From: Desulfotalea psychrophila LSv54
Lineage (GTDB): Bacteria > Desulfobacterota > Desulfobulbia > Desulfobulbales > Desulfocapsaceae
DNA length: 32,000 nt
NCBI RefSeq assembly: GCF_000025945.1
Contig: NC_006138.1
Span: forward strand, 1,470,001-1,502,000
Direction of reading: 5' to 3'
Positions within the stretch are counted from its first letter, which is position 1; the number at the start of each line of letters is the position of its first letter. The notes under the pieces are model-generated. The model saw only the letters and a program-made list of their open reading frames with translations, was not told the DNA's origin and did no database searches. A program made the translations under genes and the position numbers. Positions 3,058 through 25,558 of the stretch are shown here, piece by piece.

Positions 3058-3578
3058 TTGCTTCGTCCCTCCCGAGCAATGGCAAGAGCTCCCAAAATTG
3101 CCGCCAGTAAAAGAATAGAGATAAGTTCAAACACCAGGGAGTACTGGGTCAGTAGCTCTATGCCGATGGTGCGCATGCTACCGTCTGTGATTTTGGCCAT
3201 TATCGGCCAATCTGCTCGGGTTACCAAAAACATCAGTGCCCCCGCCAGCATTCCTGAAACGGCAAAACCAATGGGACCGGCCAGCGGTTTTATTGGTTGC
3301 ATTTTTTTTATGCTATCCGGACTTGCCAACATGACACCAAAAGAGATGGTGATGCTCACTGCTCCGATATAGATCAGGATCTGCATCATGGAGATAAAGG
3401 GTGAGTTGAGAAAGAAGTACAATCCCGCCACACCCGTTGAGGTGAGGGCAAAGCCACAGAGCGCTCTGAAAAGCTTGTGGGCAAGGCAGGTGATAAGCCC
3501 TCCCACTAGAGTTATGGCGATGGTTACCAGAAAGACAAGGCCTACAAGGTTGTCAACGCTGAAGAGAGATGAAGTCAT
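3045..3578 (-). CDS. nuoJ: NADH-quinone oxidoreductase subunit J
   Basis: 177 aa membrane protein with FISMMQILIYIGAVSITISFGVML, typical of NuoJ. Overlaps nuoI by 4 nt and nuoK by 13 nt. Confidence 0.85.
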   Translation of the reverse strand: MTSSLFSVDNLVGLVFLVTIAITLVGGLITCLAHKLFRALCGFALTSTGVAGLYFFLNSPFISMMQILIYIGAVSITISFGVMLASPDSIKKMQPIKPLAGPIGFAVSGMLAGALMFLVTRADWPIMAKITDGSMRTIGIELLTQYSLVFELISILLLAAILGALAIAREGRSKWKS

Positions 3579-6619: not shown

Positions 6620-7129
6620 TTATGCAGCCTCATTTTGGGAATCAACCTTGGGCCAGCGTCTCCATCCTGTAATTTGATGTTCAAGCTCAATGATACCTTC
6701 AATCAGAGCTTCAGGACGTGGAGGGCAACCGGGAATATAGATGTCAACGGGAAGAATCTTATCGGCACCCTCTATAATACCGTACTGTCCCTCGAAGACA
6801 AAGGGACCGCCTGAGATGGCACAGTTGCCCATGGCAATAACCCACTTGGGTTCAGGCATCTGGTCATAGAGGGTTTTTATACCCTCGGCCATTTTTTTGG
6901 AGATGGTTCCTGCCACAATCATGACGTCACTCTGTCGTGCTGAGGGACGAAAGACCTCAGCTCCAAAGCGTGAGAGATCGTAGCGGGCACATCCCGCCGA
7001 CATCATTTCAATAGCACAGCAGGCGATACCAAAGGTAAGGGGCCAGAGTGAATTTGCCCTGCCAAGGGCGATAAGCTTGTCCGCTGAAGCAAATTGAACT
7101 ACGGACGATGGTATGTTTTCTGTTTCCAC
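6620..7129 (-). CDS. nuoB: NADH-quinone oxidoreductase subunit B (N2 cluster, PSST)
   Basis: 169 aa with [21 protein letters not shown] and PGCPPRPE motifs. The ORF-track start overlaps nuoA by 31 nt, so the true start could be slightly downstream. Confidence 0.92.
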
Positions 7130-9919: not shown

Positions 9920-10675
9920 TTAGTAGAAAACCTGGAACAGCTTAAGACCGTGTGCAGGGGCCGTAGGGCCTGCTGCATTACGGTCTTTTTCTTTGAGTGC
10001 CTGTTCAAACCATTCAACACTCTCTTTACCCCGCCCCACCTCCAGGATTGATCCCACTATATTTCGTACCATATTTCTTAGAAAACCGTCGCCGATAAAG
10101 ACAAAATGCCAGGAGTCCTCTTCGAACTGTTCGTAACGTGCCTCTAGGATGGTGCGGACAGCACCCTTGCCACCGGTACGTGTTTTATCTCTGGATCCTG
10201 TATTTTCAAAAGAGGAGAAATCATGGGTACCGATAATTATCTGCAGACATTTTTGCATTGCCTCCTGATCAATTGGTTTTTCCTGATGGAGCATATACAA
10301 TCTCTTCTGGGGCGGGATTACTCCGCCGGTGAAAAGCCTGTAGTGATACTCCTTACCGGTGGCGGCAAAGCGGGCATGGAAATCGTCGGCCATTTCTCTT
10401 ACCTGAAGAATACGGATTGCACCTGGGAGCATTCTATTGAGTGCCCGTTGGAAATCATTACAGGTCAGTCTGGTATCGGTATGAAAATGTGCCGTCATTC
10501 CATCGGCATGGACCCCGGCATCTGTTCTGCCTGCCCCATGGAGGGAGATCTCTTTTACCGAGAGTCTTTTGAGGCGTGCTTCTATTTCACCCTGAATTGT
10601 GTTGGCGTGGTGCTGTTTTTGCCAGCCGGAATAATCGGTGCCGTCAAAGGCTATAAGTAGACAAATATTACGCAT
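9920..10675 (-). CDS. truA: tRNA pseudouridine(38-40) synthase
   Basis: 251 aa. MRNICLLIAFDGTDYSGWQKQ and HGAGRTDAGVHA (catalytic Asp) are TruA signatures. Confidence 0.93.
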   Translation of the reverse strand: MRNICLLIAFDGTDYSGWQKQHHANTIQGEIEARLKRLSVKEISLHGAGRTDAGVHADGMTAHFHTDTRLTCNDFQRALNRMLPGAIRILQVREMADDFHARFAATGKEYHYRLFTGGVIPPQKRLYMLHQEKPIDQEAMQKCLQIIIGTHDFSSFENTGSRDKTRTGGKGAVRTILEARYEQFEEDSWHFVFIGDGFLRNMVRNIVGSILEVGRGKESVEWFEQALKEKDRNAAGPTAPAHGLKLFQVFY

Positions 10676-19931: not shown

Positions 19932-20195
19932 TTCGTGCCGGAGGCAATTTCCTCCATTCCGTCAACTCTTATCAAGGGAGCAGGTCGCTCGGAACAATAA
20001 CTGTTTGTCGATTTTCAAAAGGTCTCACCTTTTCAATGCCAAAACCCATAAGAGATGGGGGCATTTAAGCGTTACAGTGTACTACATATCTGCAAAGCGA
20101 TAGCTGCCGATAAGAAAATAATGGTAGAGGTAAAGGCTAAAGGAAAAAAGAGGCCCTACCCGTTGTAGGGAAACCCTAAGCTTGCGCTCATGGGA

Positions 20196-20605
20196 GAATA
20201 AACACATGCAAAAAGCCTAAAAACCAGAACATTGGCGCAATATACATTTGTATAAAGCCTCAAACATTCAGTAGTCGACCAATATACAAATGTATAAAGC
20301 CCGAAACACCCAGGAGTGGAGCAATATACAGATGTATAAAGCCTGAAACATCCAGGAGTGGAGCAATATACAAATGTATAAAGCCTCAAACATCCAGGAG
20401 TGGACCAATATGTAAATGTATAAAGCCTCAAACACCGAGGAAACACAATATGCAAATGTATAAAGCCTGAAACATCCAGAGTGGACAATATACAAATGTA
20501 TAAAGGGTGAAACTTGAGTCTCGACCAATGTACCCGTGCATAGGGTGAAAACTGCCGAGGTTGACCAATGTACGAATGTCGAGAGGCTTGAAAGATGGGG
20601 AATGG
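20196..20605. repeat. Array of ten head-to-tail 40-42-bp direct repeats, each built around a TATACA-NN-TGTATA palindrome
   Basis: The CAATAT(A/G) register starts at 20196 (degenerate), 20238, 20280, 20322, 20364, 20406, 20446, 20486, 20526 and 20566. The spacing is 42 bp five times, then 40 bp four times. Consensus: CAATATACAAATGTATAAAGCCTSAAACATCCAGGAGTGGAG. The outer copies are degenerate. ORFs 20156..20488 and 20268..20528 are translation artefacts of this repeat. Confidence 0.95.
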
Positions 20606-20763
20606 CTTATCTAGAGGATCTTATCTTAGGTGAGATGGAGGACTCTCTTCTTATTTATGCAACAAGGCCGCATTGGTGTTAAAGAATTGATTATCTTTTC
20701 AAATTCACACATATTTATTTTCCTGATGGATAATGCTCATTAAAGCTAACTCCTCATTAAGAG

Positions 20764-20809
20764 GCAAAAAATTGTTGGCCAAAATCAGCGAGGCACGAGC
20801 ATGGCCAAC
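20764..20809 (-). terminator. Candidate (bidirectional) terminator downstream of the 141-aa gene
   Basis: GTTGGCCA (20774-20781) pairs with TGGCCAAC (20802-20809) across a 20-nt loop. The minus strand continues AATTTTTTG and the plus strand continues TGTTTTTGTCCTTTT. The long loop lowers confidence. Confidence 0.4.
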
Positions 20810-20834
20810 TGTTTTTGTCCTTTTGAATGACTTG

Positions 20835-21260
20835 TTATAAACCGTTTTCACGTGTGCTCATTAAAAAAGCCTTAAACCTAATAATGTTAGGAGTTTCATT
20901 GCGTTTCAGCATCGAATACTCTGTGAGAGCATCAGTTATAGCCATAAAAGAATCCAGTTTTAAGTTTAAATAGGCAAAACGATCTGCTTTATTATCCATG
21001 TGTTTAATAGAATTTTTCGGGCGCTTATCTTCTTTTTTGATAGCTGTTCTATTAATTTGTTCATCTATAAATTTAGCTGCTTGATCTAGTATCATAGTAG
21101 TAAAATCTTGCCCGCCGTTTATTCTTAGCCATTTACCATATATTTCTTGAGCAGCTCCAGCTAAATGCAGCGCCGAAAAATATTTTTGACCATCTAGATA
21201 TGATTCAATAGCACTCTCTAACATTTCATCTGCAATAGTTAATTTATCAAACTTTTCCAT
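20835..21260 (-). CDS. Hypothetical all-helical 141-aa protein with a possible HEPN-like (DUF4145-like) motif; partner of the Shedu-like gene
   Basis: AT-rich ORF 58 bp downstream of the 417-aa gene on the same strand. The N-terminal helix pair MLESAIESYLDGQKYFSALHLAGAAQEIYGKWL and R80-P-K-N83-S-I-K-H87 (codons 21023-21000) resemble the HEPN Rx4-6H signature. This is not a confident family assignment. Confidence 0.55.
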   Translation of the reverse strand: MEKFDKLTIADEMLESAIESYLDGQKYFSALHLAGAAQEIYGKWLRINGGQDFTTMILDQAAKFIDEQINRTAIKKEDKRPKNSIKHMDNKADRFAYLNLKLDSFMAITDALTEYSMLKRNETPNIIRFKAFLMSTRENGL

Positions 21261-21318
21261 GGGATTCCGATAGGTTTATAACGGCAGAAATCAGGCGCCG
21301 ACCAATGGATTTACCGCG

Positions 21319-22572
21319 TCAGCGCCCCATACCCCTTCCCGTTGCCTGAATTAATTTGTTGTGTGTTTTAGACCACTGACTTATTGTAAACTTAAGTCGC
21401 TCTAATAAATCATCATATGTAATGATGTCGATTACATTTTTGTATTTTCTTTTAATAACTTCAAAATCTTGCACCTGCTCATGTGTCATACCCTTTTTAC
21501 GACCCATAATTATAATGCCGCTTGGATTTGTTATTTTTATTTTGAAGTTCTCTGGCAATTCGTCTTTGTAGTGCTCTGTTAATTTTTCCTCTCCTTTTTT
21601 ACCCCATTTATTTAAATAGAAAATATACTTCTCAATTTGCATTACCGTACCAGAAAGTTCTCTTAGCGGTATGTAGTTGTCTCTATAAGTTCTTGTAGTA
21701 ACTATACACTTGTCGAAGGGCTTCTTTATTTCGATAATGTCTGTATTTCCGCTGGAATCTATTAGTAAATAGTCGATTTTTCGATCCGCTTTGTTATAGG
21801 TATCCCTGACAGGAGCTTCCTTGAATGCATGTATATATTTGGGATATAGCAGTAGTATAATTTGCAGCAATTCCTCCTGCCATTGAGCTTCAGTATAAGA
21901 AACTTCATCCTCAAGCATAGAATTAAGCTTTTCAGAAATGCTTGTAAATTTAATTAGTTCGAGATTTGAAAAATCATACTGAAGATTAGCTCCCTTTCTA
22001 CCATTTTTTTTATTTAAATATTGTTGATAACGTTCCTCATAGTCGTCATTAATTTCTATGTATGAAGATAAAACGCCACTGATCCTTGCTGAAACATATT
22101 TATTTAGTTCATTTGTATTGGGAAATGTTTTCAATAAACCATAATAAACCGGCATTGAGATCGCGTCTTCTTCGTCACCACCTATATAAATGGGACGATT
22201 TACCATGTTATCTATTTTGGGAAATATTGATATGTTACGTTCCGCGACAAAAAACCTACGTTCTAGTTTTATATCTTCATGCACATATAGATCGTGTTTT
22301 AAAGATAAAATATCCTTCGGGAAGCGATAGTATTCCCCATCCTTAACAGCAACTTCAAATTCAACTGGAGCCTCTTCGTCTTCTTTATTGAAAGCAGAAC
22401 TAAGATTCTTTTGGCTAAACTTGAAGACTTTACTAATTGTAACTCTGCCTGATTTATCCAATTCGTGATAGACCCAATTATGCGTGGGATAATCGCTTGA
22501 GTAGCAGAGTAAGATTTTGTTATCTAATTCCTTAAATTTAATCATATATTTGGGTTGCTCGCATTGAGACAT
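21319..22572 (-). CDS. Shedu-like (DUF4263) PD-(D/E)xK nuclease, putative anti-phage defence protein
   Basis: 417 aa, AT-rich. The C-terminal third reads EAQWQEELLQIILLLYP...RKIDYLLIDSSGNTDIIEIKKP...GTVMQIEKY...PSGIIIMGRKKGMTHEQ...VIDIITYDDLLERL. This gives a D...D...E-x-K nuclease core, a Q-x-x-x-Y helix and a TYDDL tail, as in DUF4263/SduA. The N-terminal ~250 aa has no recognisable domain. The start could be M10 (22545). Confidence 0.65.
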   Translation of the reverse strand: MSQCEQPKYMIKFKELDNKILLCYSSDYPTHNWVYHELDKSGRVTISKVFKFSQKNLSSAFNKEDEEAPVEFEVAVKDGEYYRFPKDILSLKHDLYVHEDIKLERRFFVAERNISIFPKIDNMVNRPIYIGGDEEDAISMPVYYGLLKTFPNTNELNKYVSARISGVLSSYIEINDDYEERYQQYLNKKNGRKGANLQYDFSNLELIKFTSISEKLNSMLEDEVSYTEAQWQEELLQIILLLYPKYIHAFKEAPVRDTYNKADRKIDYLLIDSSGNTDIIEIKKPFDKCIVTTRTYRDNYIPLRELSGTVMQIEKYIFYLNKWGKKGEEKLTEHYKDELPENFKIKITNPSGIIIMGRKKGMTHEQVQDFEVIKRKYKNVIDIITYDDLLERLKFTISQWSKTHNKLIQATGRGMGR

Positions 22573-22903
22573 AATGACCCGAGGTGAGCCACGAGATTGT
22601 TTTGTGATTTGGGCACCGTGTACAGGTCCTGGATTGAAAAATGGTCGCAGTCGCTTCCCTTATTGCTGGGGACTTAGCTCCGGGGCGACAAATTTTTCTT
22701 TAAAACTGCTGTTTATCTCCTCTGGTAACATAATGGAGGAGCAGATGGAAGACAAGCTTATTTCACTCCTGAGCCTAGCTTTAACTCTATGGAAAGTGGC
22801 AGAGTCTCTTATGGGGAGACCTCTACTCATTCGTAACGGAGAAAAGATGTTACTCTTCGAATATTAGATATTTATCCTGCTATAGCACTAAGGCAAACTC
22901 TTG

Positions 22904-24672: not shown

Positions 24673-25072
24673 GATAGGCACCTTTTGTGAGAAGAAGAGC
24701 TTACACCTCTTCTGAGGGTTTTTGAGAATTCGGCATTAGGAAATAAGGTATCTATTTTAGCTGTTTTTGCAAGAGGTGATGGGACTGAAGAGGGGATTTG
24801 TAAAAAAAATATGATGGTTCCAGGTCATGGAGGATAAAGGTTTTCGTAAAGATTGGGGGGGCAGGAGGTAGGAGTGGGTAAAATAGGCAATTATTATAAT
24901 CTCTTCTTTTGTATTTGGAAATAAAATTGTTGATTTTTATTTTTTCTCTGTCGAATTTGTTGCTAGAGACAATAACTCCCTAGTTATAGTTATATAAAAA
25001 GCCTATAATGAAGCATTAAGTTGAAACTGATTTTTGCTGATCAATAATAACAATTACAAGTGGAGACCTGTT

Positions 25073-25558
25073 ATGAGCATTATAAGAAATGTAGACTGTG
25101 TCGTTACCCCTATAGATTTTTCAGATAATTCTGAAATGATAGCAAAATCTGCAGCCTATATGGCGGGTAAATTTGGTGCATCATTACACCTTGTCTTTGT
25201 CGTACAGAATTTTGAAGATTATTCTGGTTTCTTTGTTCCTCAGATGTCAATGCCCAGTCTTGAAAATGAACTGCTTGAAGGTGCCATGAAGAAGATGGAG
25301 GCCTTTTGCGAAAAACTTCAACCAACCTTGGATGAAAGTGGTATTAGTGATGTGAAGAGTAAGGTTCTGACCGGCGATGTTGCCGAGCGCATTATTGAGT
25401 ACGCCGCAGGGGCAGATGCGGGCATGATTATTATGGGTACCCATGGCTATAAGGGACTTGAAAAGATTATGTTTGGTAGTGTGGCGGGTAAGGTTGTCCG
25501 TGCTGCCGGTTGCCCTGTCTTAACCATTAATCCCTATAAGTGCAGCATGAAAGAGTAG
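25073..25558 (+). CDS. Universal stress protein (UspA family)
   Basis: MSIIRNVDCVVTPIDFSDNSE...MGTHGYKGLEKIMFGSVAGKVVRAAGCPVLTI contains the USP ATP-binding G-2x-G-9x-G(S/T) motif. SD GGAGA lies 6 nt upstream of ATG 25073; the ORF-track start at 25034 is less likely. Confidence 0.88.
   Translation: MSIIRNVDCVVTPIDFSDNSEMIAKSAAYMAGKFGASLHLVFVVQNFEDYSGFFVPQMSMPSLENELLEGAMKKMEAFCEKLQPTLDESGISDVKSKVLTGDVAERIIEYAAGADAGMIIMGTHGYKGLEKIMFGSVAGKVVRAAGCPVLTINPYKCSMKE

Follow-up and report, generated by a model that had tools for sequence, protein, structure and literature searches.

A 32,000-nucleotide stretch of the Desulfotalea psychrophila LSv54 chromosome (positions 1,470,001 to 1,502,000 of NC_006138.1; hereafter the window) carries, next to each other on the minus strand, a gene for a Shedu nuclease (SduA) and a small gene for a protein of 141 amino acids (aa), which an earlier note on this DNA had read as one operon. 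Our analysis favours another explanation, to which we assign a probability of about 0.7: the window holds an orphan array of two independent integron-type cassettes, one for the Shedu nuclease and one for a probable HEPN protein that is not a Shedu partner. The array would have been inserted between housekeeping genes, with no integrase within 32 kb. One cassette would encode a single-gene Shedu nuclease and the other an all-helical protein of a large, unannotated, stand-alone family, and site-specific recombination would have placed the two in head-to-tail order. SduA and the small gene would thus be neighbours because of cassette stacking and not because of a joint function.

The small gene is certainly real and conserved, given its 62 close homologues and the 862 cluster representatives of its family recovered by an exhaustive profile search (E ≤ 1e−3). 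Its open reading frame (ORF) runs from ATG to stop, and the product is identical to a protein that NCBI labels ‘hypothetical protein’ (Table 1). AlphaFold (AF2) predicted an all-helical structure with high confidence (pLDDT 92, pTM 0.85). Sequence searches with the window protein in Pfam, NCBIfam, PADLOC and PHROGs returned nothing meaningful, and homologues were not found in phage genomes. The UniRef name ‘Similar to alpha-acetolactate decarboxylase’ was supported by none of the searches. Several descriptive statements in the earlier note proved accurate. The ORF list places the small gene 58 bp 3′ of the SduA ORF (SduA stop at 21319) on the same strand, and both genes share an AT-rich composition, with a GC content of 0.33–0.34 versus 0.47 in the flanks. 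These flanks encode housekeeping functions (class II aminoacyl-tRNA synthetase, UbiE, AMP-binding ligase, EamA, MOSC and Usp). The upstream gene, described as Shedu-like, is a bona fide and full-length SduA (Pfam SduA_C, 3.8e−42, profile positions 2–159 of 159; PADLOC SduA model PDLC00388, 2e−162 over residues 10–404).

DNA comparison with other loci delimited the small-gene cassette. In blastn searches, similarity to loci carrying the small gene always began at window positions 21285–21281 and ended at about 20831 (>10 loci). The cassette start, G/TTATAAACC (21282–21273; the slash marks the junction), lies 22 nt before the ATG, and the sequence at its end, GGTTTATAAC (20843–20834), overlaps the stop codon. 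G/TTATAAACC and GGTTTATAAC are exact reverse complements, as one would expect of a cassette's first bases and the R″ box of the attC that belongs to it. The junction GTTATAAACC was also present in loci L001, L007, L012/13, L015, L031, L035, L038 and L041.

The attC site itself was located with a covariance model (R2) built from the arms of 12 attC sites from other loci, with an uninformative centre. In these training sites, 88.9% of arm cells were paired, compared with 34–45% when the arms were slid, and 10 of 11 L-box pairs changed on both sides, i.e. covaried. Across both strands of the window (64 kb), R2 gave one significant match, aligned end to end at 20840–20744 on the minus strand (26.8 bits, E = 2.2e−4), and in related loci it recovered dozens of attC sites that had not been used for training, all on the gene strand. 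The second-best match in the window (25003–25085, plus strand, 10.3 bits, E = 2.4) falls in AT-rich intergenic DNA upstream of the Usp gene and is most likely noise. The hairpin and T-run previously described downstream of the small gene do exist (GTTGGCC-N22-GGCCAAC-AATTTTTT), but they correspond to the central stem of the attC site and were not called as an intrinsic terminator. Two other detection approaches were discarded. The negative result of a first covariance model (R1), based on 52-nt ‘mini’ attC constructs, was a design artefact, as real sites span 65–130 nt. A rigid, structure-only scan of AAC...GTT pairs for 18 base pairs had no discriminating power, scoring the true site at 13/18 and shuffled sequences at 14–17.

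The distribution of the small gene was that of a mobile cassette. The window attC was identical at 93 of 98 positions to the attC behind a gene copy of 75% identity on a marine contig (L035) that has another attC immediately upstream of the small gene, and at 72 of 99 positions to an attC in L007. Across the other loci, at least five attC types were seen behind the small gene. In the Vibrio vulnificus superintegron, it is framed by canonical VCR-type repeats at a distance of 1.2 kb from an IntI gene next to infC-rpmI-rplT, the classical location of a superintegron. One copy of the cassette (L012 6978–7395; L013 772–1189) shares 96.7% DNA identity with that of the window and occurs in an unrelated context, by a PhdYeFM/PIN pair. 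Its last eight codons and its attC have been replaced, and it looks like a recent transfer followed by decay. In L015 (7000–10410), a gene for a 1063-aa Type ISP restriction-modification enzyme lies between attC matches at 7000–7113 and 10351–10410, and this unit appears to be an unusually large integron cassette (~3.3 kb), two cassettes downstream of the small gene.

SduA occupies a comparable unit. The protein is 100% identical to the D. psychrophila entries P0063/P0064. Its longest ORF (21319–22572) would give 417 aa, and the start given by NCBI, M10 (22545), is in line with relatives; the longest-ORF start at 22572 falls inside the core site TTATGTC. Nucleotide similarity to the relatives in L017–19 (87% identity) and L020–22 (81%) covers 22574–21356 only. 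The unit opens with TTATGTC, 29 nt ahead of the probable start codon, and at that offset the relatives carry G/TTATGG and G/TTATGT. At the other end, homology stops at an R″-like ACACAAC (21356); the relatives carry ATATAAC and ACATAAC at this point, with attC sites of their own behind. In L017, this attC (3128–3187, 39.6 bits) is in the same place as the window site at 21364–21276, which aligns with R2 end to end at the predicted boundaries and which we treat as a degenerate attC-like site. Because homology to the relatives ends at R″, the last ~12 codons of SduA (…QATGRGMGR; 21319–21364) run into different sequence; these codons belong to the attC-like site and show no homology to the C-termini of the close relatives. 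Among the defence systems in integron cassettes, Shedu reportedly ranks second in frequency (bioRxiv 10.1101/2024.07.02.601686). The window SduA resembles such single-gene cassettes in that it is full-length and its close relatives are flanked by attC, and only its last ~12 codons in the degenerate site are unusual.

To define conserved residues in the small-protein family, 113 divergent members sharing only ~25% identity were drawn from the representative search. The earlier note had assigned a HEPN-type motif, R80-x2-N83-x3-H87, to the window protein. The corresponding peptide, E-D-K-R80-P-K-N83-S-I-K-H87, is present, and N83 and H87 were conserved (111/113 and 112/113, respectively), but R80 was not. 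Position 80 was R in 35 of 49 close homologues (H in 10) and essentially random among the divergent members (R in 17, K in 16, Y in 14 and G in 11). Position 82 was basic in 111/113 (K in 74, R in 37) and K86 was kept in 112/113. The signature is therefore anchored two residues downstream of R80. In helix 2, E39 was kept in 107/113 members and position 43 was K in 67 and R in 7. The family signature is thus [K/R]82-N83-x-x-K86-H87 plus E39-x3-K43 in helix 2. In the AF2 model, the first part of the signature forms the end of the helix at residues 80–86 and then the loop before the helix at 100–117, E39 and K43 lie within helix 27–47, and an extra helix (53–64) follows helix 2. Among the superfamily members P0207, P0244, P0265, P0209 and P0239, some are tandem duplications, and one, P0239, carries a fused N-terminal region that weakly matches the generic HEPN profile (PF05168, E = 0.0016); the duplications and this fusion would suit a domain acting in pairs.

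The layout of these residues resembles that of HEPN ribonucleases (RNases). HEPN domains are four-helix up-down bundles with an insert between helices 2 and 3; their active site is an Rx4-6H motif that closes helix 3 and runs into the loop before helix 4, with a polar residue (N/D/H) directly after the R and an acidic residue in helix 2, typically within Ex3[KR] (PMC3710099). In the small-protein family, H87 stands where helix 3 ends and the loop begins (112/113), E39/K43 supply the E-x3-[K/R] feature, and the basic residue at x4 spacing before the His, mostly Lys, is followed by N83. Fold searches were run with two independent AF2 models, one of the window protein and one of a 27%-identical member with R in the motif (R-type, pLDDT 94). 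With both models, HEPN proteins headed the PDB matches: TM0613 (1o3u), TT1696 (1ufb), AF0298 (2hsb), ST0689, the HEPN of 1wty, AbiV (9bj5/9bj7), Csx1-Crn2 and a HEPN-MNT toxin; 1wol and 8y7f were likewise among these top matches. A fold search of viral structures with the small protein found nothing.

Profile searches pointed in the same direction. HEPN_Apea (PF18739) was the only recurrent Pfam family, matching 5 of the 113 members (best 8.5e−4, among the best 25 of 67 matches). The R-type consensus matched HEPN_Apea across the motif at E = 4e−4 (21.2 bits versus a cut-off of 24.4) and PF05168 over residues 9–114 of 146 at E = 0.15 (12.7 bits versus a cut-off of 22). The PADLOC Csx1 model matched five members (best 9e−6), and single weak PADLOC matches were obtained for Cas13-ApeA, AbiJ, CARF_HEPN and AbiV (the last at 0.015 in one member); HEPN_AbiV (PF18728) gave E values of 0.016–0.058 in one member. 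Matches of consensus sequences in the PADLOC scan were of a coiled-coil type and regarded as spurious. The resemblance to DUF4145-type HEPN modules put forward previously found no counterpart, neither among the matches of 49 members (E ≤ 10, all 24 families) nor among the best 25 of 67 matches of the 113 members (E ≤ 0.1). When a profile of the 113 members was searched, none of the 120 best matches listed carried a Pfam domain, their names being ‘hypothetical protein’ or unrelated. Together, we consider with moderate confidence that the small protein is most probably a member of the HEPN superfamily, near AbiV and the minimal HEPN proteins, with [K/R]82-N83-x-x-K86-H87 and E39-x3-K43 as its candidate active site. 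The earlier suggestion of a HEPN-like mini protein is thus plausible, given the fold searches and the corrected motif, although no match was individually significant and the catalytic residue had been mis-assigned.

A number of observations argue against a catalytic HEPN protein and give some room to another explanation, namely that the protein is a helical bundle which might serve as a non-catalytic RNA- or nucleotide-binding module, as an immunity or antitoxin-type protein, or for other chemistry on N-x-x-K-H and E39. Every HEPN match was sub-threshold: all Foldseek matches to HEPN had E ≥ 0.3 and TM-scores ≤ 0.5, none being individually significant; the Pfam gathering thresholds of HEPN_Apea, HEPN and HEPN_AbiV were passed by none, the window protein having no match; and profile searches of the family against PDB sequences gave no match. 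Two thirds of members, the window protein among them, have Lys where the canonical residue is Arg. In the tandem-duplicated relatives, both repeats read I-N-x-x-K-H, with Ile at the position of K/R82 and no basic residue at −5, so that only N-x-x-K-H is universal. No antitoxin-like partner that could account for the tolerance of a free RNase was seen in the small-gene neighbourhoods examined, nor a cognate antitoxin in any context examined, and HEPN families that have lost catalysis exist (PMC3710099). On the other hand, the near-invariance of N83, K86, H87 and E39 at ~25% identity speaks for an active site or a site that binds a specific ligand; where the motif lies, and the acidic residue of helix 2, match the HEPN active-site layout; and the K/R interchange at position 82 is what would be expected of a phosphate-contacting residue. 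We therefore regard a non-catalytic or differently acting bundle as unlikely, albeit to be taken seriously. A HEPN protein would be expected to act alone, probably as a dimer and a metal-independent RNase, and might lead to growth arrest or abortive phage infection. This role, the likeliest function in our view and one to which we attach low to moderate confidence, is modelled on what was shown for AbiV, for Esos and for a HEPN-AbiU2 cassette and proposed for other cassette-borne HEPN proteins.

The closest characterised analogue is AbiV of Lactococcus, a dimeric RNase that cleaves ribosomal RNA, with the motif 91-RNHKSKH-97 and 2hsb and 1ufb as its nearest structures (bioRxiv 10.1101/2024.05.05.592566); it is also a frequent integron cassette (bioRxiv 10.1101/2024.07.02.601686). 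Like the small protein, AbiV is small, stand-alone and all-helical. Its motif has a similar flavour to [K/R]-N-x-x-K-H, the small protein has AbiV chains among its best fold matches (TM 0.43–0.50), and 2hsb and 1ufb rank at the top for both. However, AbiV is longer (201 versus 141 aa), its motif has x5 rather than x4 spacing and Arg where the window protein has Lys, and there is no significant sequence match between the two. AbiV also depends on an upstream RNA antitoxin (abiV2), for which there is no room here because the cassette leader is only 22 nt. The minimal HEPN proteins AF0298, TM0613 and TT1696 were top fold matches of both models (TM 0.37–0.46), but many minimal HEPN proteins pair with a nucleotidyltransferase (MNT) gene, and none was seen by the small gene.

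HEPN-type proteins are also known as integron cassettes. The ‘Integron cassette HEPN’ family (PDB 3jrt) is cassette-borne in marine Gammaproteobacteria and was proposed to be a dormancy-inducing RNase (Anantharaman et al. 2013, PMC3710099). The small-protein family shares this mode of carriage, yet 3jrt was not matched in its PDB profile searches at E ≤ 10 and did not feature in the 50 matches that each fold search listed, so the two families look different. Anti-phage activity has been shown for Esos from the V. cholerae superintegron and for a HEPN-AbiU2 cassette of V. mimicus (bioRxiv 10.1101/2024.07.02.601686; 10.64898/2026.03.17.712381). By description only, these resemble the present gene in being single, small, carried as an integron cassette and endowed with a HEPN-like domain; no V. 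cholerae protein was among the small-protein homologues listed.

The occurrence of both genes elsewhere bears on whether the small protein could be a dedicated Shedu partner (an effector, a sensor/regulator or an antitoxin-like inhibitor), which would make the pair a new two-gene variant, as the earlier note had proposed. The shared strand, the 58-bp spacing and the equally low GC content are what such a variant would show. No promoter-like or terminator-like site was called between the genes, which makes co-transcription plausible in D. psychrophila, as in any cassette array. However, tblastn detected SduA in 0 of ~25 independent small-gene loci, and the small gene was found in 0 of the 6 loci of the closest SduA relatives (two distinct proteins). 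Neighbours of the small gene included VapBC, FRG, the Type ISP restriction enzyme, acetyltransferases and glyoxalases, whereas the closest relatives of this SduA subtype are single cassettes with AAA_15 and TIR genes as neighbours. The two genes also differ greatly in numbers, with 2,586 SduA relatives at E ≤ 1e−30 versus the 62 close homologues of the small protein. In >10 loci, homology broke at 21282/21281, i.e. between the two genes, and the homology of each ends at the core sites there. Distant members of the small-protein family were singletons in variable regions, by TumE, ParE, a transposase, or an integrase and an Abi gene, and no conserved partner gene was found among those examined. 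Shedu, moreover, functions as a single protein, a homotetramer (PMC13434031). A functional coupling to Shedu, for which the earlier note had named a complete lack of DUF4263 genes beside the small protein's homologues as a refutation, is therefore largely refuted by the neighbourhoods: none co-occurred in the loci surveyed, and a conserved two-gene system is not supported. We consider a dedicated partnership highly improbable.

The cassette explanation has its own weak points. The site between the two genes reached no more than 6.9 bits when 191 nt were searched (E = 0.097); the left SduA junction, GGGTCA/TTATGTC (22575–22580), has A rather than the canonical G before TT, and no attC- or attI-like match was found upstream of it; and an integron integrase was absent from the 32-kb window (tblastn with V. 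vulnificus IntI, best E 0.48). With no integrase in 32 kb and housekeeping genes on both flanks, the locus fits an orphan mini-array of the CALIN/SALIN type. The absence of IntI, the weak upstream site and the failure of the rigid scan to separate sites from shuffled sequence might also suggest that SduA and the small gene arrived jointly on one non-integron island with incidental attC-like sequences, but this is scarcely credible, as the downstream site is the only significant covariance-model match in the window and is 95% identical to the attC after the same gene in a marine contig with a further upstream attC, and as the junctions fall exactly at the G/TT core sites common to bona fide integron loci.

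Table 1 Features of the two cassette-type units, in window coordinates.
Feature	Position	Strand	Basis
Small-gene integron cassette, 532 bp, GC 0.348, from TTATAAACC... to G of attC R′	20750..21281	minus	DNA similarity in >10 loci; covariance-model end
Core site G/TTATAAACC: R′ of preceding site and first cassette bases	21273..21282	minus	Shared junction
attC of small-gene cassette: R″ TTATAAC over stop codon ... R′ GTTAGCT	20744..20840	minus	R2 match
Coding sequence of 141-aa helical protein (CAG36065.1 / WP_011188577.1)	20835..21260	minus	ORF list; exact NCBI match
Codons of K82-N83-S84-I85-K86-H87, [K/R]-N-x-x-K-H motif, HEPN R-N-x3-H spacing	21000..21017	minus	Column counts, 113 members
Codons of E39-I-Y-G-K43, E-x3-[K/R] motif in helix 2, inside LAGAA(Q/E)E block	21132..21146	minus	Column counts; AF2 helix 27–47
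SduA cassette-like unit, 1293 bp, GC 0.347, begins TTATGTC	21282..22574	minus	blastn versus relatives
SduA coding sequence, 408 aa from NCBI start	21319..22545	minus	Pfam SduA_C; PADLOC SduA
Degenerate attC-like site between SduA and small gene: R″ ACACAAC ... R′ GTTATAA	21276..21364	minus	R2 end-to-end alignment

Beyond the small-gene attC, between it and the AMP-binding gene, a non-coding stretch (20193–20582) contains nine to ten tandem copies of a 40–42-bp unit with a 14-bp palindromic core (TATACAAATGTATA). This array had no Rfam match and was missing from all other small-gene loci; it could be iteron-like or protein-binding. The idea that it is a type III antitoxin RNA forming part of the unit, as the AbiV case might suggest, was dismissed, the array being outside the cassette and missing from the other loci.

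These results remove a false lead, in that the apparent pairing is an artefact of cassette stacking and does not represent a new two-gene Shedu architecture. They also illustrate a general pitfall: genes of a cassette array that lie close together on one strand and have similar base composition give the appearance of an operon. Integrons were already known to carry HEPN cassettes (the 3jrt family) as well as Shedu cassettes, whereas the small-protein family itself is unannotated. This family of ~145-aa proteins is now delineated by its sharply conserved [K/R]-N-x-x-K-H / E-x3-K signature, which makes it a well-defined and inexpensive candidate for current cassette defence screens. It travels as integron cassettes among defence and toxin-antitoxin genes, and near-identical cassettes are common to a Desulfobacterota chromosome and unrelated marine contigs. 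More tentatively, and as a possibility that we find rather doubtful, the family might be a large (>800 clusters) mini-HEPN clade, often with Lys for the catalytic Arg, spread by cassettes and comprising phage-triggered RNases that act alone and need no protein antitoxin. If so, it would represent a new single-gene abortive-infection family common to marine Gammaproteobacteria and a sulfate-reducing member of the Desulfobacterota.

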